The notes under the pieces: model-generated
What the model was told of the DNA's origin: nothing
Database searches by the model: none
The model's input: only the letters and a program-made list of their open reading frames with translations
Shown here: in pieces, positions 37,410 through 53,963 of the stretch
How the letters are laid out: the number at the start of each line of letters is the position of its first letter
Numbering within the stretch: position 1 is the first letter of the stretch
DNA from: Myxococcota bacterium
GTDB lineage: Bacteria > Myxococcota_A > UBA9160 > UBA6930
Assembly: GCA_965223415.1 (NCBI GenBank)
Contig: OZ245002.1
Coordinates: 4,192,001-4,256,000, forward strand
Length of the DNA: 64,000 bases
Reading direction: 5' to 3'
Position numbers and translations under genes: made by a program

Positions 37410-38219
37410 ATGGAGGACTTCGAAGGCCGGATCGCCGTGGTCACCGGCGGCGCCAGCGGCATCGGGCGGGGCATCGCCGAGGCGCTCGCCGCCGAAGGGG
37501 CCCACGTCGTCGTGGCCGACATCGACGAGGCGAGGGCGGGGGACACCGCCGAGGGCCTTCGCGGGCGCGGCGTGCGGAGCTTCGCCGTCCGAACCGACGT
37601 GCGCGACACCGCTTCCGTCGACGATCTCGCCGCCGCGACGCTGAAGGAGTTCGATGGCGTCGACCTCCTCGTCAACAACGCCGGCGTCTACCTCGGCGGC
37701 GAGATGCGCGATGTCACCGAGGACGACTGGCGCTTTGTCCTGGGCGTGAACCTGGACGGCGTGTTCCGGGTCGGACAGACCTTCTCGCGAATCCTCCGCG
37801 AGCAGGGCCGCGGCGGCCACGTGGTGAACACGGCCTCGGTGGGCGGCTTCGTCGCCCACGGCGCCGGGCTCGCCTACGGCGTCAGCAAGTTCGGCGTCGT
37901 GGCGTACAGCGAGGCAATGCGGGCGGACCTCGAGCCCGAGGGGATCGGCGTCTCGACCCTTTGTCCGGGGCCGGTGGCGACCAACCTTCCCGCCTCGGAT
38001 CGGCTGCGCGGTGCCCAGGAGGCGGCCGGCGGCTTCTCCGAGGCCCTCTCTCCCTTCATTCGCGAAGGCCTCTCACCGGAGGAGGTGGGGCCGATCGTGC
38101 TGCGCGGTATCCGCGCCAATCTGCCCTACATCTTCACCGACGACAGCCTGCGCGAGCTCTTCGCCCAGCGCTTCCAGACCATCCTGGCCGGCTTCGACCA
38201 GATCACGCCGCCCGCCTAG
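37410..38219 (+). CDS. SDR family oxidoreductase
   Basis: TGGASGIG, NNAG, NTAS, YGVSK, LCPG. Confidence 0.92.
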   Translation: MEDFEGRIAVVTGGASGIGRGIAEALAAEGAHVVVADIDEARAGDTAEGLRGRGVRSFAVRTDVRDTASVDDLAAATLKEFDGVDLLVNNAGVYLGGEMRDVTEDDWRFVLGVNLDGVFRVGQTFSRILREQGRGGHVVNTASVGGFVAHGAGLAYGVSKFGVVAYSEAMRADLEPEGIGVSTLCPGPVATNLPASDRLRGAQEAAGGFSEALSPFIREGLSPEEVGPIVLRGIRANLPYIFTDDSLRELFAQRFQTILAGFDQITPPA

Positions 38220-38250
38220 GCGTCGGTCGGCGCGGGAAGAGGGGATCGCG

Positions 38251-39138
38251 ATGGACATCGGGCGGGTGGGCGTGTGGAGCCGGACCGACGGCCTCTCGGC
38301 CGGCGAAGCGGCGGCCTTCGCCCGGCGCGTCGAGGCCCTGGGCTACGGCGCCCTCTGGATCCCCGACGCCTTCGGACGCGATCCCTTCGCCCATGCCGGC
38401 TGGCTCTTCGCCCACACCGAGCGCCTGGTGGTGGCGACCGGCGTGGTGAACATCCATCTCCGGGAGGCCCAAGCGACGGCCTGCGCTCAGCGTGAGCTGC
38501 ACGACCAGTCAGGCGGGAGGTTCCTTCTCGGTCTGGGCGTGTCCCACGGCACCGTCGTGGAGGCGATGTTCCGCAAGGCGTACCCGAAGCCCGTGCCGAG
38601 CATGCGCGAGTACCTGGACAAGCTCGACGCCGCGCCCTGGTGGGGTCCCGCCCTGGAGGGCGAGCCGCCCATCGTGCTGGCCGCCCTCGGGCCGCGGATG
38701 CTGGAGCTGGCCGCCGAGCGGACCTGCGGCGCCCACCCCTTTTTCGCGCCGCCCTCGAACACCGCCCGCTCCCGCGAGATCATGGGCCCCGGCCCCTGGC
38801 TGTGTCCCGAGCAGAAGCTCCTGCTCGAGACCGATCCCGAGAAGGCGCGAGCGCGCGCTCGGAAGTCGATGGCCGGGCCCCTCGGCATGCCCAACTACCG
38901 CCGGAACCTGGTTCGCGCGGGCTTCGCCGAGCACGAGCTCGACCAGTGCGGTAGCGACCCGGTCGTCGACGCCGTGGTGGCCTGGGGCGACGTGGACGCT
39001 CTCGTCCGCCGCGTCCAGGAGCACCTGCACGCGGGCGCCTCCCATGTCTGCATCCAGCCCCTGTCCGTGGACGATCCGGCCCGACCCGACGTGGAGCTGC
39101 TCGAGAAGCTCGCGCCGCGTCTGTGCGGAGGCGGTTAG
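38251..39138 (+). CDS. LLM-class, putatively F420-dependent oxidoreductase
   Basis: GYGALW, VATGVVNI, LGLGVSH, LAALGPRML, GAHP, NYRRN. Confidence 0.85.
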   Translation: MDIGRVGVWSRTDGLSAGEAAAFARRVEALGYGALWIPDAFGRDPFAHAGWLFAHTERLVVATGVVNIHLREAQATACAQRELHDQSGGRFLLGLGVSHGTVVEAMFRKAYPKPVPSMREYLDKLDAAPWWGPALEGEPPIVLAALGPRMLELAAERTCGAHPFFAPPSNTARSREIMGPGPWLCPEQKLLLETDPEKARARARKSMAGPLGMPNYRRNLVRAGFAEHELDQCGSDPVVDAVVAWGDVDALVRRVQEHLHAGASHVCIQPLSVDDPARPDVELLEKLAPRLCGGG

Positions 39139-40436
39139 GCGGCCGGTCGCACCGGCAGCCGATGGATCGCGGACACGTGCAGGTTCGGCACCCGCTCCGG
39201 CGGCCCGGCGGCCTCGAAGCGGTGCAGGATCGGGATGAGCGCCCGGAGCGCCGCCCGCAGCTCCCAGCGCGCCAGGTTCGCGCCGAGACAGAAGTGGGCC
39301 CCGAAGCCGCCGAAGGCCAGGTGGTGGTTCGGCCAGCGGGTGACGTCGAAACGGTAGGGATCCGGGAAGACGGTCTCGTCGCGGTTGGCGGACGGGTACC
39401 ACATGCCCACGTCTTCGCCGGCGCGGATGCGCGTGTCGGCGATCTCGATGTCGCGCACTGCGGTGCGGGCGAACTGGACCACCGGCGACGTCCAGCGCAG
39501 GATCTCCTCGGCGGCGGTCGCCACCAGGTCCGGGTTCCCGCACAGCAGGTCGCGCTGCGCCGGGTGCTCCAGCAGCGCGGAGACCCCGCCGCTGATCGCG
39601 TTCTGGGTGGTCTCGTTGCCCGCCGCCAGGATCACGAACAGGAAGCCCTGGAGCTGCTGCTCGGTCAGCGGCTTGCCGTCGACCCGCCCGTGCACGATCA
39701 CGCTCGAGAGGTCGTCGCCTCCGGGGCCCCGCGCCCGCCGATCCCGGGCGAGCTCCACCATGTAGTCGGTGATCTCTCCGTAGGCCCGGGCCACGCCCTG
39801 GTTGCGCTCCTCGCCCGGCTCGAAGAAGCCCGGCTCCGGCGCGCCGATGAGCACGTTGGTGAGCTGTTTCAGTCGCATCCAGTCGCCGGCGGGCAGGCCC
39901 ATCATCTCGCCGATGGCGGCGAGGGGGAGCTTCTGGGCGAAGCTCCGGACGAAGTCGCAGAGCTCACCCTCCTCGGCCGCTCGCTCGAGCTCCGCGGCGA
40001 ACTCGTCGGCGAACTTCCGCGCCAGATCGTCGAAGTGCCCCTCGAGCTTGCGCAGGGCCGCGGGGGTGAAGCGCCGCGCCACCACGAGCCGGAACTCGCG
40101 GTGGCGCGGGTCGTCCATGTAGATGAAGTCCGGCGGTTCCTTCGGGTCCCAGCCGTGGGCCTCGGTCCGCAGGCGCATGGAGGTCTCCATGCGCGCGTCC
40201 TCTTCGCGGGTCATGAGGCGCAAGCGCCGGCTGTTCACGAAGACGTCGGACCGGCGCGAGACCTCGAGCACGTCCGCGTGGCGGGTGATCGCCCAGAATG
40301 GCGCCATCTCTTCCCGCTCGTACCAGAACACCGGGGCCTCCCGGCGCAGCAGGTCCCACTCCCGCCAGGGGTAGCCCTCGCGCACGTAACGGTCGGTGCT
40401 GTGGATGTCGAGGGTCGCAAGCGTCGGCTCGGGCAT
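39135..40436 (-). CDS. Cytochrome P450 (CYP124/125/142-like)
   Basis: AGNETT, EEILRW, SANRDE, FGGFGAHFCLG heme motif. Confidence 0.93.
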   Translation of the reverse strand: MPEPTLATLDIHSTDRYVREGYPWREWDLLRREAPVFWYEREEMAPFWAITRHADVLEVSRRSDVFVNSRRLRLMTREEDARMETSMRLRTEAHGWDPKEPPDFIYMDDPRHREFRLVVARRFTPAALRKLEGHFDDLARKFADEFAAELERAAEEGELCDFVRSFAQKLPLAAIGEMMGLPAGDWMRLKQLTNVLIGAPEPGFFEPGEERNQGVARAYGEITDYMVELARDRRARGPGGDDLSSVIVHGRVDGKPLTEQQLQGFLFVILAAGNETTQNAISGGVSALLEHPAQRDLLCGNPDLVATAAEEILRWTSPVVQFARTAVRDIEIADTRIRAGEDVGMWYPSANRDETVFPDPYRFDVTRWPNHHLAFGGFGAHFCLGANLARWELRAALRALIPILHRFEAAGPPERVPNLHVSAIHRLPVRPAA

Positions 40437-40500
40437 GGGGCCACTGTGGGCTAGAATGCCCGCTTCGTCCAGAAGGCCGGGCTCGGCCGGGAGGCATCTC

Positions 40501-41382
40501 ATGGCGACCGCTCTCGCATCCGACGTGCTCGAGGTCACGCGTCTCACGGGCTCGCTCGGCGCCGAGGTCCGGGGAATCGCCCTGGGCCAGGCCGGTCCGG
40601 AGGAGGCCGAGGCGCTGAAGGAGCTGATGGCGGAGCATCTGGTCCTCTTCTTCCCGGACCAGCACCTCACGCCCGACGCCCACATTGCCTTCGGGCGCCT
40701 CTTCGGGGAGCTCGAGGCCCACCCGAACCTCCACCTCGACGCCGAGCGGCCCGAGTTCTTCGAGCTCCACGCCACCGGCGGCGCCGGCGCCATCGCCGAC
40801 GAATGGCACAGCGATCTCACCTGTCAGGAGGAGCCGTCGGTGATGGCGATCCTGCAAATGGTGAAGTGCCCGCCCTTCGGCGGTGACACGCTCTGGGCGA
40901 ACGCCTACAAGGCCTACGACGAGCTCTCGCCGCCGATGAAGGAGCTCTGCGAGGGGCTCACCGCTCTCCACGACGCCCATCCCCACGGCAAGCCAGAGAA
41001 CATGGCGATCCATCCCGTCGTGCGAACCCACCCGGTGACCGGCCGCAAGTCCCTCTTCGTGAACGAGCACTTCACCCGCCGCATCGTCGAGATGGGCCAC
41101 CAGGAGAGCGAGGCCCTGCTCGGGTTCCTGACCGGTTGGATCACGAGCCCGAACTTCACGGTCCGCTACCACTGGAGCGAAGGCACGATCGCGATGTGGG
41201 ACAACCGCTGCACGCAGCACTGCGTGCTGAACGACTTCGAGGGTGAGCGGGTCATCCAGCGCGTCACCGTGATGGGCGATCGGCCCGAGGCCGCTGCTCC
41301 GCTGCGCTGGGAACCCTTCGTCAAGCCCTTCAGCGCCGCGAGCCGGCACGACCGCCAGCTCAAGACGTTCCTGCACCGCTAG
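40501..41382 (+). CDS. TauD/TfdA alpha-ketoglutarate dioxygenase
   Basis: WHSD, GGDT, HPVVRTHP, WDNRCTQH. Confidence 0.92.
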   Translation: MATALASDVLEVTRLTGSLGAEVRGIALGQAGPEEAEALKELMAEHLVLFFPDQHLTPDAHIAFGRLFGELEAHPNLHLDAERPEFFELHATGGAGAIADEWHSDLTCQEEPSVMAILQMVKCPPFGGDTLWANAYKAYDELSPPMKELCEGLTALHDAHPHGKPENMAIHPVVRTHPVTGRKSLFVNEHFTRRIVEMGHQESEALLGFLTGWITSPNFTVRYHWSEGTIAMWDNRCTQHCVLNDFEGERVIQRVTVMGDRPEAAAPLRWEPFVKPFSAASRHDRQLKTFLHR

Positions 41383-43495
41383 GCGGATCGCCCTGCGGGC
41401 GCGCCAGGCCCTGGGGCGTGAGCTCGGCCTCGGCGGGAACCGCTTCGCCCGCCAGGATCGCCTCCACGCGATCGAGCAGCTCCGGCAGCGGGTAGGGGCG
41501 CGCCGGGTGGCCGGTGAAGGGCTCGGTCGTCACGAACGGCTGGGTCAGGAAGCGGAGGAGCCTCTGGGCGCGCGCGGTCTCCTCCGGATCCGCGTCGGCG
41601 ATCGTCGCCGGATCCGGAAGCGCGAGGTCCGGGTCGCACCGCTCGTAGTCGATCAGGAGCGCCCGGGCTCGCTCGGACACGCGCGCATGTCGCGGGCTCG
41701 CGAACGCTCCAGGCTCGCTGCGGACGTGGCTGCCGACCGGATCCACGGCCGGATAGAGGCCGCGCCGGGCGCGTCGCCGGTCGAGGGTGACCCGCGCGTC
41801 CCAGGGAGCGACGAGGGCCGAGCGGCCATCCTCCTCCTGGTTCTCGAACGGGGAGACGACGAGCGTGGTCATGGATCCAGCCGGCGCCGGCGTCCGCAAG
41901 CGGGTGAAGCTCGCCTCAGCGTCGATCTCGAATCCCGTCTGCGTGAGCAGGACGACGAGCACGTCCCGCCCCTCTTTCCGAAGCTCCTCGGCGTGGTCGA
42001 TGCCTTCCGCGAAGGTCTTGCGACGGGCGTCCGGCGGGTTCTCCCGGGGCGCGAGGTGCACGGCCACGTTCCGGGCGAGTCCGGCCTCCCGTAGCTCCGC
42101 CCGCAGGTCGTCCGGGTCGAAGGGGCCCTGGGCGATCCCGGTCCATAGCGCCGCCCCGTCGGGCCGGTTCGCCCAGCGATGGCTCAGCTCGTTCAGCAGC
42201 ACGACCATGCCGCAGCCGGCGCGGAAGGGGACCCGGACGAGGGCGCCGCGGGCGAGGGGCACGAACAGGTCCACCGCGCGGATGCCCGTCGCGGAGGTTC
42301 GCGCTTCCCCGGCCGGAACGGCCAGGGGACGGGGTGCCTCGTCCTCCCGCTCCGGAAGCCGCGCCGCGACCTGCGCGTGCCCCTTCGCCAGTGCCCAGGC
42401 TCGCGCTGTGCGTCCGGCCCGGTCGGGGAGGTCCGAGCGGGCGCCGTGCTCGAGCAGGAGGGCGACGAGATCCTCGCGTCCCCGCATGGCCGCCACGTGG
42501 ATGGGAGCGTTGCCCGTCGCCGCCCGCCGGTTCGGGTCGGCGCCGGCCTCGAGGAGCCGGCGTACGATCTCCATCTCCTCGAGGAGGACGGCGGCCCAGA
42601 GCGGGGATTCTCCGGTCGCGCATCCGCACCGCCCGTCGGCGACGGCGCCGCGAGCGAGGAGGAGCTCGGTCATGTCGAGGTCTCCCCGTTCGACGGCAGT
42701 GACGAGCGGCGTGGCCCGGGAGGCGAAGGGGAGCACGCCTTCGTAGACGAGCTCCGGATCCCAGCGCTGCTCCGTCTCCACGAGCTCCGGCATGCGCGTG
42801 AGCATGCGCGCTACCTCGTCGTGGTCGCCCGCGCGAAGCGCGAGAAAGAACTGCACGGCAGCGCTGAAACGCGGGTCCCGGGAGGGGCGCAGGGGTGTGG
42901 GCTCGGCCATGGGGTTCTCCTCCGATCCCGGCGCACCGGGCTCGCCGGGCAATGGGTAGGCCTCCCGGAGCCGCGCCCTGGCCCTTCGCAGGCGCTTCTT
43001 CAGGCTCGGCAACGAGAGCTCGAGGAACGATGCGAGGGCCGGCTGCGGCTCGCCGGCGAAGTAGTGGAGGACGAGGGGGAGGCGTTCGGACCGGGGCAGG
43101 GCCTCGACGGCACGCCGGAGCTGCTCGGCCTCGCGCCGGTCCTCGAGAGCGGCGTCGGGCAGGGGGCCGCTCGCCGTTCTCTCGCGGGGCTCCCGAGTGG
43201 CCACCTCGAGTCGTCCGCGGCGCGTCACCCGGTCGCAGTGCTTGAGCACGATGCGCCGGAGCCAACCCGGGAAGGCCGCCGGCTCCTCGAGCTGCCGAAG
43301 GGCGACGTGGGCGTTCGCGAAGCTCTCCTGGGCCACGTCCCGCGCGAGCTCGATGTCACCCAGCCAGCCGAAGGCCGTCCCCACGACCATGTCCTGGAAC
43401 GCGACGACCAGCTCGCCGAAGGCGGCCAGCTCCCCGGCCTGGGCGCGCTCGACCTGGGCGACGTAGGGCTGGGGGCTTGCGTCGGGTTCCTGCAT
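41360..43495 (-). CDS. ECF sigma factor fused to ankyrin repeats and a degenerate F1-ATPase beta-like domain
   Basis: Sigma2 (AFGELV..DVAQE..FPGWL), sigma4 (LP..ER..LHYF..KKRLRRAR), ankyrin (TPLVTA, SPLWAA, GADPN, APIHVAA), F1-beta motifs (TGIRAVDLF, YPAVDP, FLTQPF, FTG). Confidence 0.88.
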   Translation of the reverse strand: MQEPDASPQPYVAQVERAQAGELAAFGELVVAFQDMVVGTAFGWLGDIELARDVAQESFANAHVALRQLEEPAAFPGWLRRIVLKHCDRVTRRGRLEVATREPRERTASGPLPDAALEDRREAEQLRRAVEALPRSERLPLVLHYFAGEPQPALASFLELSLPSLKKRLRRARARLREAYPLPGEPGAPGSEENPMAEPTPLRPSRDPRFSAAVQFFLALRAGDHDEVARMLTRMPELVETEQRWDPELVYEGVLPFASRATPLVTAVERGDLDMTELLLARGAVADGRCGCATGESPLWAAVLLEEMEIVRRLLEAGADPNRRAATGNAPIHVAAMRGREDLVALLLEHGARSDLPDRAGRTARAWALAKGHAQVAARLPEREDEAPRPLAVPAGEARTSATGIRAVDLFVPLARGALVRVPFRAGCGMVVLLNELSHRWANRPDGAALWTGIAQGPFDPDDLRAELREAGLARNVAVHLAPRENPPDARRKTFAEGIDHAEELRKEGRDVLVVLLTQTGFEIDAEASFTRLRTPAPAGSMTTLVVSPFENQEEDGRSALVAPWDARVTLDRRRARRGLYPAVDPVGSHVRSEPGAFASPRHARVSERARALLIDYERCDPDLALPDPATIADADPEETARAQRLLRFLTQPFVTTEPFTGHPARPYPLPELLDRVEAILAGEAVPAEAELTPQGLARPQGDPPSGAGTS

Positions 43496-43655
43496 GACGT
43501 GGGAGAGGACCCGGTCGAGGGCCGGGCGGATACCCCCGAGAACGGCCCCGGCTTCCTTCGGCCGCCTGCAGAGGGTAGGCGAGCGGCGCCCGGGTGGGGA
43601 CCCCGCCCGCGCGGCACCAGGGCGGCTGGCATCCACCATCGCCTAGACTGCCCGG

Positions 43656-44492
43656 ATGGCCATCCTCGACGACAAGGTGGCGATCGTCACCGGCGCAGCC
43701 TCGGGCATCGGCAAGGCGACGGCGCAGCTCCTGGCCAAGGAGGGCGCTGCGGTCCTGGTGGCCGATCTCGACGAGGCCGGCGCCAAGACGGTGGCCGGCG
43801 AGATCGCCGACGCCGGCGGCCGCGCCCTGGGTCACGCCGTCGACGTCTCGGACGAGGCGGCGGTGCGGGGGATGATCGACGCCGCCGTGGCGGCCTTCGG
43901 CGGCCTCGACGTCCTGCACAACAACGCGGCGGCCATCGGCGCGGCGAGCCCCGGCCGGGACATGGACGTCGCCGCGATCGACGTCGAGGTCTGGGATCGC
44001 ACGATGGCCGTCAACCTGCGCGGCGTCATGCTCGGCTGCAAGCACGCGATCCCCCGGATGCTCGAGCGCGGCGGGGGGGCCATCGTCAACACCTCGTCGG
44101 GCTCCTCCCAGCGCGGCGACCTGACGATCCCCTCCTACGCGGTCTCGAAAGGCGGAGTCGACACGCTGACCCTCTACGTCGCCGCCCAGTACGGCAAGCG
44201 CGGCATCCGCTGCAACGCCATCGCCCCGGGCTTGATCCTGACCCATCCGGTGGAGCAGTTTGGTGGTGCCGAGTACGTCGGCATGCTGGAGGAGCACCAC
44301 CTGACCCCCCGGGTCGGACAGCCGGAAGACATCGCCCAGGCCGTCCTCTTCCTCGTTTCCGACGCCGCCGGGTTCATCACCGGCCAGATCGTCAACGTCG
44401 ACGGTGGCATCCTGAGCCATGCGCCGCCGGTCGCGGACATTCGGCGCATGGCGGCGATGGCCGCCTGGGCGAAGCAGGCTCCGAAGGGGTAG
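43656..44492 (+). CDS. SDR family oxidoreductase
   Basis: TGAASGIG, HNNAA, YAVSK, CNAIAPG, ITGQ..VDGG. Confidence 0.92.
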   Translation: MAILDDKVAIVTGAASGIGKATAQLLAKEGAAVLVADLDEAGAKTVAGEIADAGGRALGHAVDVSDEAAVRGMIDAAVAAFGGLDVLHNNAAAIGAASPGRDMDVAAIDVEVWDRTMAVNLRGVMLGCKHAIPRMLERGGGAIVNTSSGSSQRGDLTIPSYAVSKGGVDTLTLYVAAQYGKRGIRCNAIAPGLILTHPVEQFGGAEYVGMLEEHHLTPRVGQPEDIAQAVLFLVSDAAGFITGQIVNVDGGILSHAPPVADIRRMAAMAAWAKQAPKG

Positions 44493-44606
44493 GGCGCGCC
44501 CCGGGGCCCGCTGGCGGCGGACGGGATTCGTGGCTACCACGGGCTGGGCGCGGCCGTCCCGCGCTTCCCGACCCTACCCGACGCGAACCGAACTGGAGAC
44601 GCACCC

Positions 44607-44903
44607 ATGCCTGCCTACCTGATCGTGAACTACAAGGTCGAGAACCCGGAGCTCTACGGCGAGTATGCCGCCGCAGCCGGGCCCGCCATGGGGATCGGCG
44701 ACCAGTGCCAGCTGCTGGCGTTCGACGCCAAGTCGGAGCAGATCGAAGGCGAGGACGCCGGCCACCAGACCGTGCTCCTCAAGTTCGACTCCAAGGAGAA
44801 GGCCCGCGAGGTCTACGAGTCCGGTGACTACCAGGCGGTGGTCGGCAAGCGGCTCGAGGCCACCTCCAGCCACTTCGCCATCCTGGTCGACGGAATGGCC
44901 TGA
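44607..44903 (+). CDS. DUF1330-family protein
   Basis: MPAYLI, IEG, LKFDS..A..YES.DYQ. Confidence 0.85.
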   Translation: MPAYLIVNYKVENPELYGEYAAAAGPAMGIGDQCQLLAFDAKSEQIEGEDAGHQTVLLKFDSKEKAREVYESGDYQAVVGKRLEATSSHFAILVDGMA

Positions 44904-44904
44904 A

Positions 44905-45702
44905 GTGCGGCTCGAAGGCAAGGCGGCCATCGTCACCGGCTCCGCTCGCGGCACCGGCGAGGCCATCGCGCGGCTCTTCGTGGAAGAGGGCGCCCGGGTG
45001 ATGGTGTCGGACGTGCTTCACGACCGCGGCGAGGCGCTGGCCAAGCATCTCGGCGAGGCGGCGATCTACCAGCCGCTGGACGTGTCCCAGGCCCGCGACT
45101 GGGACACGGCGGTCGCCCGTGCGCGGGACGTGTTCGGAGGCATCGACGTGCTGGTGAACAATGCGGCGGTGCTGGTCATCCGGGGCATCGAGGACACGCA
45201 GCCCGAGGAGCTCGAGCGGCTCTTCCGCGTGAACCAGCTCGGCCCCTTCCTCGGCATCCGTGCCGTGGCCGGGCCGATGCGCGAGCGCGGCGGCGGGGCG
45301 ATCGTGAACGTCGCCTCCTCCGATGGCGTGAAGGGGATGAACGGCGTCGTCGGCTACGCCTCCACGAAGTGGGCCCTGCGCGGCATCACCAAGGCCGCCG
45401 CCATGGAGCTCGCGCGCGATCGCATCCGCGTCAACGCGGTGTGCCCCGAGGCCGGCAACCACGAGATGTCCGCCCCCTTCCTGCCCGCGGGCATCGACTC
45501 GCGTATGGCTGCCGAGCACAACGTGGGGCAGCTGCTGCGCCCGCCGGAGGGCTACGACCTCGACGACCACGTGCGCGACGTGGCGCGCGCCGTGCTGTTC
45601 CTGGCCTCGGACGACTGCCCCACTGCGACCGCCGCCGATCTCGTCGTCGACGGTGGCCTCACGGCCGGCTACATCCAGCGCGGGCTGCCCGGCTCCGATT
45701 GA
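44905..45702 (+). CDS. SDR, 3alpha/20beta-hydroxysteroid dehydrogenase-like
   Basis: TGSARGTG, NNAA, YASTKWALRG, RVNAVCP. Confidence 0.88.
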   Translation: MRLEGKAAIVTGSARGTGEAIARLFVEEGARVMVSDVLHDRGEALAKHLGEAAIYQPLDVSQARDWDTAVARARDVFGGIDVLVNNAAVLVIRGIEDTQPEELERLFRVNQLGPFLGIRAVAGPMRERGGGAIVNVASSDGVKGMNGVVGYASTKWALRGITKAAAMELARDRIRVNAVCPEAGNHEMSAPFLPAGIDSRMAAEHNVGQLLRPPEGYDLDDHVRDVARAVLFLASDDCPTATAADLVVDGGLTAGYIQRGLPGSD

Positions 45703-45703
45703 C

Positions 45704-46165
45704 TCAGCCGGGGGGCTCGCACACGAAGATCGGGATGTCCCGATCCGTGCGTTCCCGGTACTCGGCGTAGGGTGCGTAGTGCTGGTCGCAGAGGGGCCAG
45801 AGCGCGGGCTTCTCCTCGGCGCCCGCCAGCCGCGCCCGCAGCTTCATCTTGCGCCCCCGGTGGTTCACCTCGATGTCAGGGTGCTTCACCAGGTTGCCGT
45901 ACCACACCGGATTCTTCGGCGCTCCGCCCTGGGAGGCCACGAGGAGAACGCCCTCCCCGTAGGGCACGTACATCAGCGGGATCGTGATGCGCTTCCCGCT
46001 CCGGGCACCGGTCATCGTGACGAAGCACACCTCGTCGCCGCCGAGGGTGTTGAGGAAGCGTCCGCCGAAGAGGCGGTGCAGGAAGACGTGGGTGCGGGTC
46101 ATCGTCTTCAGCACCCAGCGCGGCGGCGGCGAGCCGGATCCGGAAGAGGGGGCTTCGCTGGCCAT
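45704..46165 (-). CDS. Deazaflavin (F420)-dependent nitroreductase, Ddn/DUF385 family
   Basis: TGARSG, VASQGGAPKNPVWYGNL, YRERTDRDIPIF. Confidence 0.9.
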   Translation of the reverse strand: MASEAPSSGSGSPPPRWVLKTMTRTHVFLHRLFGGRFLNTLGGDEVCFVTMTGARSGKRITIPLMYVPYGEGVLLVASQGGAPKNPVWYGNLVKHPDIEVNHRGRKMKLRARLAGAEEKPALWPLCDQHYAPYAEYRERTDRDIPIFVCEPPG

Positions 46166-46217
46166 GGGAATCCTCCGAGGGGTAGAGTGACGGCGCTCCC
46201 AGGAGGCTACCGCACAG

Positions 46218-46907
46218 GTGAACCCCTTCCCGGCGTTGCGGGGCGATGCCGCGCTGGCCGTCTACCTCGATCTCAAGAGCCCCTACGCGTTCATCGCCTT
46301 GGAGCCCACCCGCGCCATGGCCCGGGCGGCAGGCGTCGCGATCGACTGGCGCCCCTTTACCCTCGACATCCCCAGCTACCTGGGCTCGGCGCGCCTCGAC
46401 GGGAAGGGCCGCGTCGCCGAGAGCCGGCGCACGCCCCAGCAGTGGACCGGCGTGCGCTACGCCTACCGGGACGCGCGTCGCTACGCGAGCCTGCGTGGCA
46501 AGACGCTGCGGGGCACGGTCAAAATCTGGGACTCGAGCCTGGCGGGCATCGCCATGCTGTGGGCCAAGCAGCAGGGCCCCGAGCGCTTCGACCGCTTCGT
46601 CGACGAAGCCTACGCCCGCTTCTGGCGGCGTGAGCTCGACATCGAGGACGCGGGCGTGCTCGAGGCGCTGCTGGCGGAGACCGGCGCCGACGCGGCGGGC
46701 TTCCACGCCTTCGCCGACGGCCCCGGCCGCGCGGCCCACGACGTCCTGAACCAGGCCGCCTTCGACGCCGGCGTCTTCGGTGTCCCCACGTACCTCGTCG
46801 GAGACGAGATGTGGTTCGGCCGCGAGCACTTGCCGCGGGTCGCCTGGCTGCTGGGCGGTGCCGTCGGTCCTGCGCCCGAAGCGGCGAACCGGAGCTTCGA
46901 CCCGTGA
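46218..46907 (+). CDS. HCCA isomerase / kappa-GST (DsbA-like) protein
   Basis: DLKSPYAF, GVFGVPTY, FGREHL. Confidence 0.85.
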   Translation: MNPFPALRGDAALAVYLDLKSPYAFIALEPTRAMARAAGVAIDWRPFTLDIPSYLGSARLDGKGRVAESRRTPQQWTGVRYAYRDARRYASLRGKTLRGTVKIWDSSLAGIAMLWAKQQGPERFDRFVDEAYARFWRRELDIEDAGVLEALLAETGADAAGFHAFADGPGRAAHDVLNQAAFDAGVFGVPTYLVGDEMWFGREHLPRVAWLLGGAVGPAPEAANRSFDP

Positions 46908-47524
46908 GCCGTCTCACCGTCGCGCTGGACCTCCGGCACCCGCTCGCCTACCTGGCCCTCCAGCCCACCGTCGCACTCGCCCGGGAGCTCTCTCTCGACG
47001 TCGACTGGCTGCCGCTCTCGGTGCCAACGCTGCGTCCGCCGAGTGCGCGCCAGGCGGGCGACGACCGGGGCGTTCGCCACCGGCGCTACCGCGCCCAGGC
47101 CATCGCCCGCGAGATCGAGGCCTACGGCGCGGTCCAGGGGCTCGTGCTGCGCGAGCCGTACCGCAGCGCGGAGGTCGATGCGGCGATTCTCGGCTGGCTG
47201 TGGGTCCGGGAGCACCAGCCCGGCCGGCTGCCCGCCTTCCTGGGAGCCCTGTTCGCCGGCTATTGGTCCCTCGATCTCGACGCGGCCCGGGTCGACGCGG
47301 TCGCGGGCCTGGTCGAGACCGTCTCGGCGGATGCCACCGCCTTCCTCGAATGGGCGGTCGGGGAGGGACCGGAGCGTGCCCGCGCAGTGGCTGCCGAGCT
47401 GGAGGAGCGGGGCCTCTTCCAGGTGCCTGCCTACGCCGTGGAAGACGAGGTGTTCTACGGTCGGCAGCACCTGCCCATGATTCGCTGGATCCTCGAGGGA
47501 CGGTCCGGTCCCGGACCCATCTAG
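46904..47524 (+). CDS. Second, divergent HCCA isomerase/DsbA-like protein
   Basis: DLRHPLAY, GLFQVPAY, YGRQHLPMIRW; GTGA coupling. Confidence 0.75.
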   Translation: MSRLTVALDLRHPLAYLALQPTVALARELSLDVDWLPLSVPTLRPPSARQAGDDRGVRHRRYRAQAIAREIEAYGAVQGLVLREPYRSAEVDAAILGWLWVREHQPGRLPAFLGALFAGYWSLDLDAARVDAVAGLVETVSADATAFLEWAVGEGPERARAVAAELEERGLFQVPAYAVEDEVFYGRQHLPMIRWILEGRSGPGPI

Positions 47525-47545
47525 GATCCGGGAGGAGGTGGCCCC

Positions 47546-48016
47546 ATGGCAGACCAGGACAGAGCCGCGGTCCGGTTCCCGCCGCCGTTCGTTCCCCTGA
47601 TTGCGCTGGCGCTGGGCGTGGCGCTCCACCGGTGGGTGTGGCCGGCGCCCCTGCCGGTGAAGGGGCTGCTGCGCTGGGGCGCGACCGCGCTGCTCCTGGG
47701 CGGTGGACTGGCACTGATGGGTGCGGCCGCGGGCCTCTTCCGACGCACCGGTCAGGATCCGAAGCCGTGGGTGAGCACGCCGGAGATCATCGAATCCGGC
47801 GTCTACGGATTCACGCGCAATCCCATGTACGTGGCGATGGGTCTGCTGCAGGCGGGACTCGGCGTCGCCCTCGCCAACGGCTGGGTCGTCGGGCTGGTCC
47901 CGGTCACCTGCGCCGTCATCCAGCTCATCGCGATCCGCCATGAGGAGGCCTACCTCGAGCGGAAGTTCGGCAGCACCTACACCGCCTACAAGGCGCGCGT
48001 CCGGCGTTGGCTCTGA
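47546..48016 (+). CDS. Isoprenylcysteine carboxyl methyltransferase / PEMT family protein
   Basis: FPPP, TRNPMY, EEAYL..KFG..Y..YKARVRRW. Confidence 0.88.
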   Translation: MADQDRAAVRFPPPFVPLIALALGVALHRWVWPAPLPVKGLLRWGATALLLGGGLALMGAAAGLFRRTGQDPKPWVSTPEIIESGVYGFTRNPMYVAMGLLQAGLGVALANGWVVGLVPVTCAVIQLIAIRHEEAYLERKFGSTYTAYKARVRRWL

Positions 48017-50002: not shown

Positions 50003-51820
50003 TCAGCTGCCCGAGCGGTAGGCGCGGGCCTGGATCTCGTACAGCTCCGCGTAGGTGCCGCCGTGTGCCATCAGCTCCTCGTGGCTCCCCACCTCCACGA
50101 CCCGCGCGCCGTCCAGCACGACGATCCGGTCCGCCATGCGCACGGTGCTGAAGCGGTGGGAGACGAGCAGGGTGATGCGCCCGTCCGGGGCGAGCTGTTC
50201 GGAGGCGCCGTCCCCGGCGACCGCCGCGTAGCGTTCGAAGAGGGCGTGCTCGGTCTCGGCGTCGAGGGCGGCGGTGGGCTCGTCGAGGGCGAGCAGCAGG
50301 GGCCGGTCGCGCATGAAGCCGCGGGCCAGGGCGAGCTTCTGCCACTGGCCGAAGCTCACCTCGACGCCCTCGGGCCAGGTGGGGCCGAGCTGGGTGTCGA
50401 GGCCCGCGACGAGCTGCTCTACCACGTCGTCGGCGCCGGCCCGTCCGACGGCGGCGCCGACCGCCGGCCGCTCCTCGATGCGGGGGACGTCGCCGACGCC
50501 CACGGTCTGCAGGGCGCGGAACTCGAAGCGGAAGAAGTCCTGGAAGGCGCCGGCCAGGCGCGTCCTCCACGCCTCGGCGGGCATGCGTGCCAGGTCGGCT
50601 CCGTCCACCAGGATGCGTCCCTTCGAGGGCCGGTAGAGGCGGGCGAGCAGCTTCACCAGCGTGGTCTTGCCGGCGCCGTTCTCGCCCACGATGGCCACGA
50701 CCGTGCCCGCCGGCAGGTGCAGATCCACGTCCTCCAGGACGAAGCGATCGGTGCCCGGATAGGCGAAGGACACGCCCTTGAAGCGGATGCCGTCCTTCAG
50801 CGCTTCCGGGACCGGGACGTCCGCGTCCTCCTCCAGCCGGGCTGCGTAATCCTCGAGCCAGGCCATGCGCCGTGAGCCGTCCATCCAGATCCCGCGCAGG
50901 AAGCCGATCTCGCCGACGGTGGCGCCGATGTAGGCCGAGAGCCGCGAGCCGGCGGCGAGCACGAGCAGCACGTTGCCCGGGGTCTCTCCGAGGCCCGAGG
51001 AGACGAACACCACCGCGCCGACGAAGGCGGCGCCGAAGACCAGCCAGGCCAAGGCGTGCCAGACCGCGCTGCCCCAGCGCGCGCCGGCCACCGGGCCGTA
51101 CCAGCGCTCCCAGGCCTCCCGGCGGCGGAGGGCCAGGCGCTCGCCCAGGCCCGTCACCCGCACCTCCTTGCCCGGCGGCGCGGTGGTGGCGAGGTCGAAG
51201 AGGTGGCGCGCCAAACGGTTCGCCGGAGCGCCCCGCTCCTCGGCGGCGCGCTCCACGCCCGGGCGCCAGGTGGAGGTGAGCACGGTCGGCAGGGCGAAGG
51301 CCGCCAGCAGCACCAGCACCGGATGGATCGAGACCAGGAGCGCCACGGTCACGCCGAGCCGCAGGATCCAGCCGCCGGTGCTGAACAGCGACATGTACAT
51401 GTGGTCGAGGACGAAGACCTGGTCCCGCAGCACCGCCAGCCGGTCGAGATGCTCCGGGCGCTCGTGGTGCTCGATCGTCGACACCGAAGCCTGCAGGCGG
51501 GCCACGTGGGTCTCGAGGGCGATGGTCACCTGGTCGCGGAAGCGGCGCTGGGTGCGGTCGCTGATCACCCGCAGGAACCAGGTGGCGGCGGCCGACACAC
51601 CCAGGCCGACGGCGGCGACGCTGACGAGGGTGCCGTCGTCGCCCAGTACGCCGTCCGCCAGTAGCTTGAGCCACAGGGCGAGGAGCGCATCGGGCAGCGC
51701 CGCGAGGAGGGACAGACCGAAGGCCACGACGAGGAGCCTCGGCTCGGCCTCGTAGCCGCGCTTCAGCGCTCGCCACATCGAGGAGAGGGCCGGCGGCAGC
51801 TCGTCGTCAGTCGAGGACAT
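50003..51820 (-). CDS. ABC exporter subunit (TMD+NBD) with degenerate signature
   Basis: GENGAGKT, VSFGQ, LDEPT, SHR. Confidence 0.92.
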   Translation of the reverse strand: MSSTDDELPPALSSMWRALKRGYEAEPRLLVVAFGLSLLAALPDALLALWLKLLADGVLGDDGTLVSVAAVGLGVSAAATWFLRVISDRTQRRFRDQVTIALETHVARLQASVSTIEHHERPEHLDRLAVLRDQVFVLDHMYMSLFSTGGWILRLGVTVALLVSIHPVLVLLAAFALPTVLTSTWRPGVERAAEERGAPANRLARHLFDLATTAPPGKEVRVTGLGERLALRRREAWERWYGPVAGARWGSAVWHALAWLVFGAAFVGAVVFVSSGLGETPGNVLLVLAAGSRLSAYIGATVGEIGFLRGIWMDGSRRMAWLEDYAARLEEDADVPVPEALKDGIRFKGVSFAYPGTDRFVLEDVDLHLPAGTVVAIVGENGAGKTTLVKLLARLYRPSKGRILVDGADLARMPAEAWRTRLAGAFQDFFRFEFRALQTVGVGDVPRIEERPAVGAAVGRAGADDVVEQLVAGLDTQLGPTWPEGVEVSFGQWQKLALARGFMRDRPLLLALDEPTAALDAETEHALFERYAAVAGDGASEQLAPDGRITLLVSHRFSTVRMADRIVVLDGARVVEVGSHEELMAHGGTYAELYEIQARAYRSGS

Positions 51821-53603
51821 CGAGCTCCTCTCCTTCCTCGTCTTCGCCGAAGCGCTGTGCCTGGAGCTCGAACATCGTGCAGTAGCGACCGCCCAGGGCC
51901 ATCAGCTCGTCGTGGCTGCCCAGCTCGACGACCTTGCCGTGCTCGAGCACACAGATGCGATCGGCGTGCCGTACGGTCGAGAAGCGGTGGGAGATCAGGA
52001 TCGTCGTCGTGTGCCGGGTGGCCGCGAGGATGCGCTCGAAGATCTCCGCCTCGCCGCGCACGTCGAGCTGGGCGGTCGGCTCGTCGAGGAGCACGAGCCC
52101 GGCGCCCTGGCGCACGGCGCAGAGCGTCCGGGCGAGGGCGATGCGCTGCCACTGCCCTCCGGAGAGGTCGGTGCCGCCCTCGTAGCCCCGCGCAAGGATG
52201 GTATCGAGATCGGCCAGGCTGCCGGCGCCGGCCTCGGCGAGGGCCGCACGCACGACCTCGTCGGGGGCGCCCGCCGGCGCGACGTTCTCGCGGAGCGACA
52301 GCTCGAAGCGGATGAAGTCCTGGAAGACCGCCGTGACCCGCAAGCGCCAGCTCTCGATGTCGAGGGTCGTGAGGTCGAGGCCGTCCACCTCGATCGCGCC
52401 GGACTGGGGCTCGTAGAGCCGGCAGAGGAGCTTCGCGAGGGTCGTCTTGCCCGCGCCGTTCTGGCCGACGATGGCGAGGGACGAGCCCGCTGGGATCGTG
52501 AGGTCGAAGCCCGCGAGGACGGGCTCGCCGGTGGCCGGGTAGGCGAAGCTGACGTCCCGGAAGCGGATCTCCCGGGCGGGCAGGCCCTCGGCGGAAGCCT
52601 CGCCGCGGGTGAGCGCACCACCCCGGGCCATGCTCTCCCGGAGCCGCACGACGGCGGCGGCCGGCGCGGCGGCCCCGTCCAGGGCCCAGGAGAGGCCGCC
52701 GAACGCGATCATGCTGGTGCTGATGGCGGCGCTGGCGAAGGTGACGAGACGGTCCAGGGCAAGCGCGCCGTCGGACGCGGCTGCGGCCATCGAAGCGAAC
52801 ACGATCAGGTTGGCGCCGAGCACGAGCAGCAGGCTCCACACGACCGGCCGCTCGCGAAGCCGCGTGGCCTCCCAGCGCAGGTCATGGAGCTGGCGCCGCC
52901 GCGCGCGGAACCGCTCGACGGTCCAGCCCGCCAGGCCGAACAGCCGCAGCTCCTTCGCCGCGGGCGGCTCGACCGCGAGCCTGTAGGTGTAGTCGGCGTG
53001 GCGCTGGGCCTCGCGCACCTCGTCGGTGTTGCGGTCCCTCCACACGGCGCTCTCGCGCAGCAGCCAGTGGGTCGCCAGCCAGGCGCCGCCGAGCACGAGG
53101 GGCGCCCACCAGGCGTAGGCCGCCAGCACCGCGGCGGAGGCGAGCCCGCCCACCATCTCGACCAGGCCCGAGGCGATGAAGTCCATGGAGATGTTGAGCG
53201 GGGGGCCGCTGATGCCGAGATCGAAGTCGCGGCCCATGGTGAGATCGTTCGTGAGCTCGGGATTCTCCAGGTGGCCCATGCCCGGCGGGCCGACACAGGC
53301 TCGCGAGAGCTGGTCGTAGAGCCAGGCGGCAGTTCGGCTTCCGAGGTTGGCGGAGAGCGCCTGGTGCAGGGGGGCGAGCACCTGGAGCAGGACGAACACC
53401 ACGCCCACGAGGGCGAGGGGCGCAGCCAGGCTCTCTTCCCGCTCGACCGCGCCGATCAGCCCGCCCATGGCGATGGCGAAGAAGGCGGGCAGCAGGCCGC
53501 GGAGAACCAGGACCGTCCACCAGCCGAAGGCGAGGGCGCGGTCCGCCGAGGGCAGCAGGGCGAAGAAGCCCCATTCGTCGCTCGCCCTCAGGCGCCCGAT
53601 CAC
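51807..53603 (-). CDS. ABC exporter subunit (TMD+NBD)
   Basis: GQNGAGKT, LSGGQ, LDEPT, SHR; GTG start after GGAGGAGG. Confidence 0.92.
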   Translation of the reverse strand: MIGRLRASDEWGFFALLPSADRALAFGWWTVLVLRGLLPAFFAIAMGGLIGAVEREESLAAPLALVGVVFVLLQVLAPLHQALSANLGSRTAAWLYDQLSRACVGPPGMGHLENPELTNDLTMGRDFDLGISGPPLNISMDFIASGLVEMVGGLASAAVLAAYAWWAPLVLGGAWLATHWLLRESAVWRDRNTDEVREAQRHADYTYRLAVEPPAAKELRLFGLAGWTVERFRARRRQLHDLRWEATRLRERPVVWSLLLVLGANLIVFASMAAAASDGALALDRLVTFASAAISTSMIAFGGLSWALDGAAAPAAAVVRLRESMARGGALTRGEASAEGLPAREIRFRDVSFAYPATGEPVLAGFDLTIPAGSSLAIVGQNGAGKTTLAKLLCRLYEPQSGAIEVDGLDLTTLDIESWRLRVTAVFQDFIRFELSLRENVAPAGAPDEVVRAALAEAGAGSLADLDTILARGYEGGTDLSGGQWQRIALARTLCAVRQGAGLVLLDEPTAQLDVRGEAEIFERILAATRHTTTILISHRFSTVRHADRICVLEHGKVVELGSHDELMALGGRYCTMFELQAQRFGEDEEGEELDVLD

Positions 53604-53705
53604 CGCTGCGGCCTCCTCCCCTTTCCGATTCGCGCCAGGGCGAGCCGGAGGCCCATTAGGCCACAGCTCCGGGCCCGGGTCCATACCGGTTCCTATGCTG
53701 CGGCC

Positions 53706-53963
53706 ATGGCTGCACGCCTCGCTCACGTGTTCGTTCTCGGGCTCGTCGCCGCGACCCTCGGCTGCGCATCCACGGTTCCGCTCGAGCAGCATCAGGCCCT
53801 GGAGGCGCGGCTGGGCGAGCTCCAGGAGGGGCAGGAGCTGCTCCGCGGCGAGCTCGGCGAGCTGGAGGAGCGCAACGAGCAGCTCACGGCGATGGTCGCG
53901 GCCCAGCGGATGATCATCCGCGACCTCCGCTGCCGCCCTCAGCTCACGATCGAGGCCGAGTAG
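53706..53963 (+). CDS. Small coiled-coil lipoprotein
   Basis: Lipobox TLGC followed by a heptad coiled coil; TATGCT 6 nt before ATG. Confidence 0.7.
   Translation: MAARLAHVFVLGLVAATLGCASTVPLEQHQALEARLGELQEGQELLRGELGELEERNEQLTAMVAAQRMIIRDLRCRPQLTIEAE

Follow-up and report, generated by a model that had tools for sequence, protein, structure and literature searches.

A catalytically degenerate F1-beta domain in a conserved ECF sigma factor-ankyrin fusion: a candidate one-component regulator from Myxococcota

The 64,000-nucleotide stretch of a Myxococcota bacterium genome analysed here (GenBank assembly GCA_965223415.1, contig OZ245002.1, positions 4,192,001 to 4,256,000; hereafter the window) contains, at 41360..43495 on the minus strand, a gene for a 711-residue protein, P0001, in which an extracytoplasmic function (ECF) sigma factor, an ankyrin stack and a domain derived from the beta subunit of F1 ATP synthase are fused. 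We found that this fusion is conserved and that its beta domain has kept the fold and lost the catalytic residues family-wide, in line with the original prediction of a repurposed, non-hydrolysing beta domain. We lean, with modest confidence, towards the reading that P0001 is a self-inducing one-component ECF sigma factor, in which the ankyrins would serve as an in-cis anti-sigma and the pseudo-F1-beta module as a ligand-gated input.

The gene reads as 711 codons with zero internal stops. Mechanically, the open reading frame can be extended to a start at 43639 (759 residues); the N-termini of homologues and a predicted promoter motif ending at 43507 support the ATG at 43495 as the favoured start. 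The domain order is ECF sigma (residues 10-179), about five ankyrin repeats (207-384) and the F1-beta-derived domain (402-685). Pfam profiles above curated cut-offs were Sigma70_r2 (29-93; PF04542, 26.7 bits against a cut-off of 24), Sigma70_r4_2 (124-176; PF08281, 35.9 against 25.7), Ank/Ank_2 and ATP-synt_ab (404-516, E 2e-14), the four that the original prediction had named. The sigma70-ECF model TIGR02937 scored 56.5 against 42.9, and sigma2 and sigma4 were the only sigma regions above cut-off, as defines ECF (group IV) factors. The NCBIfam models for alternate F1-beta (E 8e-33) and atpD (E 5e-28) matched far under their cut-offs. Translation, Pfam, NCBIfam, PDB sequence matches and fold all agreed with the architecture first proposed. 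Sigma2 (residues 10-92; 43220..43468, minus strand, as are all features of this gene) carries the clade motif EPAAFPGWLRRIVLKHCDR and is also supported by model helices and conservation; sigma4 (residues 113-179) lies at 42959..43159.

The C-terminal third of P0001 is most similar to F1-type beta subunits, which were the top 58 of the 60 PDB sequence matches listed. The pseudo-F1-beta module (residues 402-685; 41441..42292) comprises the nucleotide-binding fold and C-terminal helices, and superposed on F1-beta 4q4l as anticipated (VIA-align Z 27.4, rmsd 3.1 over 272 residues), with an agreeing Foldseek match. The beta motifs quoted in the original prediction were all found, in colinear order; one of them, ENPPDAR (likened to NEPPG), is present in P0001 but unconserved in the family, with the first proline in 25 of 188 members. 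We aligned 181 sigma fusions, 115 fusions of the same module to a helix-turn-helix (HTH) domain, described below, and 35 canonical betas, some rows being near-copies; the 181 are the 188 sigma fusions with full beta coverage minus seven without the anchor motif. Residues are given in bovine-like numbering, which we take to be that of the genome's own atpD minus 22. This numbering is consistent with the residues named in the available part of PMC5608556.

The catalytic residues were lost throughout the sigma fusions. In P0001 the P-loop (42203..42226) reads FRAGCGMV, in which the Gly161 equivalent is kept, Lys is replaced by Met and Thr by Val, and the Walker B strand (41945..41965) reads DVLVVLL, with Leu at the Asp256 equivalent, both exactly as first reported. 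The residues at its catalytic positions (M430, V431, Q456, G457 and L517) include neither a Walker A GK[TS] nor the catalytic Glu and Arg nor the Walker B Asp. Lys162 was present in six of 181 sigma fusions, none with a following Thr or Ser, giving GK[TS] in 0/181; Thr163 was found in 11 and Glu188 in 10. Asp256 occurred in 20/181 sigma fusions, compared with 113/115 HTH fusions.

Elements outside the active site were also missing. The Arg260 and Tyr311 equivalents were found in none of the 181 sigma fusions and none of the HTH fusions. A GRxPSxxGY-like loop was absent from both sub-families (0/181 and 0/115) and present in 31 of 35 canonical betas, and the same held for a DELSEED-like motif (0/181, 0/115 and 33/35). 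The Asp256-Thr305 span measured 16-36 residues in sigma fusions and 22-25 in HTH fusions against 49 in canonical betas, a deletion of about 24 residues common to both. The N-terminal beta-barrel was lacking as well: P0001 gave no PF02874 match, and since the linker from the ankyrins to TGIK is shorter than 100 residues in 188/188 members, there is no room for one. In beta, the lost elements provide the surfaces that contact alpha and gamma. Judged from its sequence, the module is neither an ATPase nor able to join an alpha3beta3gamma ring, and the suggestion in the original prediction of an F1-interacting module was not supported, each ring- or gamma-contact element checked being deleted in 181/181 members.

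The adenine pocket, on the other hand, was retained. YPAVD (41741..41755) forms the adenine-pocket wall with the Tyr345 and Pro346 equivalents, and QPFVTTEPFTG (41510..41542) is the beta-specific pocket segment with the equivalents of Phe418, Ala421, Phe424 and Thr425. According to the available part of PMC5608556, Tyr345, Phe424, Pro346 and Phe418 line the adenine pocket of beta, and the Tyr345-Phe424 distance changes between open and closed beta. P0001 has V432, Y581, P582, F654 and F660 at pocket positions, which were kept in 163-181 of 181 sigma fusions per position. Individually, the conserved positions were Gly161 (180/181), Val164 (171), Pro346 (181), Gln416 (179), an aromatic at 345 (168), Phe418 (165), a small residue at 421 (164), an aromatic at 424 (163) and Thr/Ser425 (156). 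V-type B subunits from four loci kept GIYPP and lacked the QPF..FTG segment, for whose retention no natural negative control exists. The YPAV, QPF and FTG residues are kept as originally claimed; since V-type B subunits share YP[AP], the YPA motif does not count as evidence for binding. Nucleotide binding by a module with this pocket is plausible.

In a 75-row tree, all 50 dead modules formed one clade inside beta (SH-aLRT 100, from a quick search with long branches), branching with beta and not alpha, and the HTH forms fell inside the sigma-fused modules (92, at an open fork). The common Asp256-Thr305 deletion argues for a single origin of the dead modules independently of the tree. Their identity to canonical beta is about 27-33%. 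For the donor, profile scores favoured an N-type beta, and the tree left F- against N-type undecided.

To define the family, we combined a word-index search (166 matches, best 120 listed) with an exhaustive search (best 150 listed), giving 255 distinct proteins. Profiles built from 47 members recovered the sigma-ankyrin-beta order in 185 of the 255, the remainder being mostly truncated copies or long proteins with ankyrins that have no relation to the family. Full-length open fusions occur across many assemblies at 29-67% identity, and many are misannotated as ATP synthase beta. The named members among the listed matches, from which the taxonomic range of the sigma fusion is known, are few and belong to Myxococcota and Pseudomonadales. 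Occurrence is patchy: with two candidates scored per genome, the fusion was found in 6/401 genomes of the phylum, two of them by matches confined to the sigma-ankyrin part, and in 3/151 class genomes and 0/3 same-genus genomes, the class query having overlooked one genome (G343) found by profile. An ESM Atlas search returned only generic ATPase and ECF clusters, and a plasmid search with the sigma domain gave no match at 1e-15. In the only two pairs above 60% identity, dN/dS was 0.31 and 0.26 for the beta part and 0.07 and 0.13 for sigma, indicating purifying selection on the beta part. None of the three observations that the original prediction had named as fatal was made: profile and fold matches were present, the assembly was contiguous, and homologues with the same architecture were under selection. 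Some sigma-ankyrin genes have no beta (L020, L025-L027, L035, L049, L053, L064, L066), several being followed by a separate ankyrin gene, and at L031:8164-9370 and L054:2485-3690 a second, different long-extension ECF sigma gene follows the sigma-ankyrin-beta gene.

The sigma core of P0001 groups with ECF264. The available parts of PMC7826278 describe ECF264 as an extension-regulated group from Paenibacillaceae with a DUF1835 extension, no anti-sigma factor and the promoter GTAACCTT / GGCACATT; in the part of PMC8999054 available, it is listed under 'Others' without an assigned mechanism. A profile of the clade sigma core matched in 5/401 Bacillota genomes, and four of the matches were sigma-DUF1835 proteins with the clade promoter. 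In a 71-core tree, these four nested among 34 clade sigmas, and support of 100/97 set the resulting 38-row clade apart from 33 other ECFs; the tree is unrooted, with an ingroup picked by profile similarity and a limited outgroup. The P0001 promoter has the same layout and consensus class as that of ECF264, in the variant GGTATCC / GGGTCC, and there is no anti-sigma gene nearby. However, the DUF1835 extension of about 350 residues is missing, with no PF08874 match in P0001 or its genome, and the host is not a Firmicute: a genome of the same family, encoding P0006, is labelled 'Myxococcota bacterium'. DUF1835 was matched in seven of 201 genomes of the same phylum, and 0/8 loci had a sigma gene. 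We conclude that P0001 would work like ECF264 and belongs to the same clade, yet lacks two stated features of the group, DUF1835 and a Firmicutes host.

Other clade sigmas carry ankyrins only or differing extensions, most of which are preceded by the M...RPS motif that P0001 has in its linker (residues 180-206; 42878..42958). Ten of 17 scanned extensions had a Pfam match: above cut-off were PheRS-alpha, DnaE, Rho RNA-binding, ClpX zinc finger, FliM, T2SSF (PilC/GspF) and nucleotidyltransferase domains, and below it two GNAT and one DUF3471. Such captured domains were seen at one or two loci each (L047, L074, L052, L055, L078, L034, L067, L071, L045, L048, L080). Further long clade extensions were noted at L033, L038, L060, L062, L070, L073, L077 and L079; the seven scanned (all but L038) had no Pfam match. 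Outside the clade, two Bacillota ECFs (L143:64-2070, minus; L145:1471-3405, plus) have extensions, about 470 residues long, in which the eye picks out what look like HEAT repeats.

Upstream of related sigma genes we first read, by eye, the family motif GGTAWCY-N15-GGNWCY. A slightly wider pattern was present upstream of 38/76 related sigma genes (shuffle rate 0.4%), with the 15-nt spacer in 37 of the 38, and at 24/59 sigma loci outside the derivation set. In the window, the predicted autoregulatory promoter (43534-43507) consists of a -35 element GGTATCC (43528..43534) and a -10 element GGGTCC (43507..43512), the latter a weak matrix match, separated by 15 nt and ending 12 nt before the ATG; the transcript would be near-leaderless. 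With the spacer held at 15 nt, nothing else in the 5.8-Mb genome matched strictly; other spacers gave 1-3 matches, and a matrix scan returned two sites above 15 bits, one of them the autopromoter. A relaxed pattern gave 57 matches at spacer 15, against 37 at 14 and 58 at 16, which is background. Among five other carriers, three had the motif directly before the gene, with further matches at reversed-control level. Since further matches stay at background or control level, the predicted regulon is the gene itself, degenerate targets being possible. P0001 is the only sigma of its clade in the genome (profile 225.7 bits; next 110.8), and its activity at the GGTATCC-N15-GGGTCC promoter is predicted.

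The ankyrin stack (residues 207-384; 42344..42877) is the proposed in-cis anti-sigma. AlphaFold2 modelled whole P0001 with a mean pLDDT of 85.9 and a pTM of 0.85, and residues 1-385 with a pTM of 0.84, which for three small domains would imply a confidently fixed sigma/ankyrin arrangement. VIA aligned residues 209-384 to DARPins (Z 19.4), and several ankyrin chains aligned from inside sigma2 onward, a weak hint that sigma2 may abut the stack; fold searches with the sigma-ankyrin model returned only ankyrin proteins. A complex prediction of sigma (5-182) with ankyrin plus beta (195-690) scored 0.24 against a mark of 0.32 and counts neither way. An ankyrin hairpin holds C290-G-C292 (42620..42628), a possible metal or redox site. 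This CxC motif was present in 150/187 scored members as a trait of one large clade (three changes on the tree), and sigma C87 in 138/188; independent covariation of the two was not significant. A mutual-information scan between domains (188 rows, Neff 129) was dominated by clade signal and was not used.

The dead module also occurs on a second type of regulator. A search for short relatives returned mostly atpD fragments, together with stand-alone dead betas and two proteins with an N-terminal HTH-like domain. HTH-pseudo-F1-beta proteins form a large Bacillota family whose best 120 matches include Paenibacillus, Alicyclobacillus, Caldalkalibacillus and Symbiobacteriaceae, and one from cultured Paenibacillus, WP_152404100.1, is annotated 'hypothetical protein'. 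The HTH domain is Cro/C1-like. A GTAA-N6-TTAC palindrome lies just upstream at 5/8 HTH loci in strict form and at 2/8 as a near match, and the HTH fusion may be an autorepressor. Genes for an ATP-binding cassette (ABC) exporter adjoin 4/8 HTH loci and match the pair found directly behind the sigma-ankyrin-beta gene in L042, with 45-47% identity over about 495 residues and 41% over 470. Both sub-families keep the pocket residues and have lost catalytic and ring-contact residues; the HTH forms keep the Walker B Asp. Because one module is found on two DNA-binding outputs, with a shared downstream operon in one branch, it looks like an input domain. The HTH entries P0340, P0350 and P0376-P0493, and those at L135-L142 and L169:5001-6059, are in most cases labelled ATP synthase beta or hypothetical, and these proteins have Gln at the Walker A Lys. 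Two loci, L012 and L015, encode the dead beta on its own, immediately after a sigma-ankyrin gene; elsewhere, an apparent split could reflect a frameshift. The stand-alone dead betas (L012:2746-3852, L015:1485-2372, P0283, P0306, P0336) start at the stub lying just after the barrel of a true beta.

The surroundings of the P0001 gene were then compared with those of its relatives. It is flanked by a divergent SDR gene (43656..44492, plus strand; Pfam adh_short), which has no demonstrated membership of the system, and by a convergent gene for a TauD-family dioxygenase (40396..41382, plus strand), which overlaps its 3' end by 23 nt, and is therefore monocistronic. The SDR gene adjoins 3/26 compared loci, two of the three being near-identical, and no neighbour recurred widely among the 26. 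The conserved fusion and the lack of an anti-sigma-like neighbour, here or as a recurring partner, fit the one-component system without a separate anti-sigma that had been proposed. As also stated at the outset, no atp genes are adjacent, an intact atpD lying more than 2 Mb off (C1:2008520-2009944). Besides atpA and atpD, the only beta paralogue in the genome is a FliI-like ATPase (G000:C1:2158184-2159368), and a scan of genome contigs with a single fusion protein found only three ordinary atpD loci. A scan for sigma-70 promoters and terminators gave nothing exceeding chance. The region around the gene (37410-48016) encodes SDRs, a cytochrome P450, the TauD dioxygenase, an F420-dependent quinone reductase, and DsbA-like and DUF1330 proteins, and is one of oxidative small-molecule metabolism. 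About 6.5 kb away, an ABC exporter gene pair (50003-53792, minus) resembles the module-linked exporters only distantly, with about 33% identity over the ATPase part.

In the self-inducing mechanism that we favour, an intact sigma2/sigma4 pair, encoded behind the putative clade promoter, would be held in a fixed arrangement by the ankyrin stack acting as an in-cis anti-sigma. The beta module, by its sequence incapable of ATP hydrolysis and of entering an alpha3beta3gamma ring, would be a monomeric two-lobed sensor. An adenine-bearing or aromatic small molecule, bound without Mg, might enter the adenine pocket between the lobes and shift the hinge that opens and closes the pocket in F1; the clamp would then loosen and sigma load RNA polymerase. 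The output would be its own mRNA and anything downstream, such as the ABC exporter pair in one branch, and not a large energy regulon. That the extension-regulated ECF264 nests in the same sigma clade (100/97) favours this mechanism. A number of points weigh against it. The retained pocket residues also form the lobe-lobe junction, so that fold stability alone could keep them, and V-type B subunits keep GIYPP too. Ordinary Mg-ATP binding is unlikely because hydrophobic residues occupy the Lys, Thr and Asp positions of the Mg/phosphate site. The beta part is under relaxed selection relative to sigma, as estimated from two pairs, and is dispensable for the clade, since many clade sigmas carry ankyrins only or unrelated extensions. 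The evidence for the ankyrin clamp is the pTM of the models. The window promoter scores 15.3 bits, below all of the training sites (19-36), the Pfam matches of the HTH domains are under cut-off (E 0.005-0.05), and ABC linkage is clear in one of 26 sigma loci and absent beside the P0001 gene. Ligand binding and transcription by P0001 are themselves predictions.

We weighed five other explanations. The beta domain might be a ligand-free structural part, the signal arriving as a metal or redox cue at the ankyrin CxC or as proteolytic cleavage of the linker. CxC and C87 are common in the family, Cys-rich extensions and proteolysis are known routes of extension-bearing ECFs in the part of PMC8999054 available, and the beta residues that persist could be there for the fold; we nevertheless consider this unlikely, since CxC is a trait of one clade that does not covary independently with C87, branches without CxC keep the beta pocket, and the HTH fusion keeps it without any ankyrins. 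A special case of the ligand-gated mechanism, in which the module reads ATP, ADP or AMP and sigma triggers an energy-stress response, would suit the ATP-binding ancestor, the kept adenine-pocket residues and the P-loop Gly. This energy-charge reading, distinctly unlikely in our judgement, conflicts with the absence of GK[TS] (0/181) and the rarity of the Walker B Asp (20/181), and with a genome whose only predicted target is the gene itself, three of five other carriers having the motif at the gene, with further matches at control level. There are also no recurring energy genes among the 26 loci, and the sporadic occurrence (3/151 class genomes, 0/3 of the same genus) speaks against the energy sensing of the original prediction.

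The module might instead be a decoy or sponge, a dead beta that lures a toxin, an antibiotic or a phage product whose target is F1-beta, with binding freeing sigma to make more bait and, where present, exporter. The predicted regulon of one gene, the exporter linkage in one branch and the patchy distribution would suit such a role, and in an extended form all sigmas of the clade would use pieces taken from essential machines as baits, as the PheRS-alpha, DnaE, Rho RNA-binding, ClpX zinc-finger, FliM and PilC/GspF domains at one or two loci each might suggest. A bait should however resemble the host beta, and at about 27-33% identity most surfaces have diverged; each of the other captured domains is found in very few loci and both ligand and attacker remain hypothetical, making the decoy quite improbable. 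Still less probable is a readout of ATP-synthase assembly in which the module binds the alpha, gamma or epsilon subunits of F1: descent from beta would fit, but the barrel, the GRxPSxxGY- and DELSEED-like elements (0/181 and 0/115, where 31 and 33 of the 35 canonical betas have them) and the Arg260 and Tyr311 equivalents are gone, and the gene is never beside atp genes in the 26 loci. Finally, an assembly chimera or decaying atpD remnant could account for the lost catalytic residues and relaxed dN/dS. This was refuted, leaving it virtually no probability, by open full-length fusions in many independent assemblies at 29-67% identity, by dN/dS well below 1, by invariant module positions and by a contiguous contig: in run X2, public and probably the source sample, one contig covers 40000-45000 with zero differences.

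Few proteins in biology are as constrained as the beta subunit of rotary ATPases, and here a dead, ring-incompetent descendant sits in two unrelated transcription-factor chassis. It looks like an undescribed, reusable sensor. With the promoter predicted and an HTH version available in cultured Paenibacillus, the question is testable. We found no report of a dead beta as regulator input in the open-access literature, in which ECF264 appears only in PMC7826278 and PMC8999054. The main texts of these two papers, as available, do not mention ankyrin or ATP-synthase extensions, and 'ankyrin' is not a domain term in the part of the supplement searched. A broader proposal, which we rate as a long shot, is that the dead F1-beta founded a mobile family of transcriptional sensor domains shared by ECF sigmas and HTH repressors, and that the ECF264-like clade is a domain-capturing platform, in which pieces of F1-beta, PheRS, DnaE, Rho, ClpX, FliM and PilC are joined to a self-inducing sigma and lure the molecules attacking these machines. 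If true, this platform would be a bacterial counterpart of integrated decoys.

Compared with F1-beta (AtpD and the N-type alternate; TIGR01039, TIGR03305), P0001 shares the nucleotide-binding fold and C-terminal helices, the pocket residues and QPF..E.FTG; it differs in having no barrel, GKT, Glu188/Arg189/Asp256/Arg260, PSAVGY helix-loop or DELSEED, and in lying outside atp operons. Mycoplasma F1-like ATPases (NF045858, NF045934; PDB 9io5) likewise reuse a beta homologue outside ATP synthesis. They are ring-forming active motors, whereas P0001, far under their cut-offs (75.7 against 850 and 61 against 570), carries a dead module fused to a regulator. In NF-kB p100/p105, C-terminal ankyrins inhibit a fused transcription factor, and plant NLR integrated domains are captured host domains used as sensors; the likeness to both can only be an analogy, the proteins being unrelated apart from a shared ankyrin fold (4ot9). 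ECF sigmas that carry regulatory extensions are already known (PMC8999054 and PMC7826278, as available). In the same part of PMC8999054, a fused extension replaces the anti-sigma and acts by conformational change in ECF41 (SnoaL), ECF42 (TPR), ECF57 (WD40) and ECF238/CorE (Cys-rich), as we propose for P0001; the extensions differ, and none is described there with a dead housekeeping enzyme. The closest relative is ECF264 (Casas-Pastor et al. 2021, PMC7826278), with which, on the available parts of that paper, P0001 shares the sigma clade, the promoter type, a long soluble C-terminal extension and the lack of an anti-sigma, and whose one reported neighbour is an ABC transporter. The ECF264 promoter type was found at 4/4 sigma-DUF1835 loci. 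P0001 differs in its Myxococcota-level host and its ankyrin and pseudo-beta extension, where ECF264 has Firmicutes and DUF1835. Our analysis broadens ECF264, until now a small group of Paenibacillaceae, into a clade whose members share a promoter and differ in interchangeable extensions.

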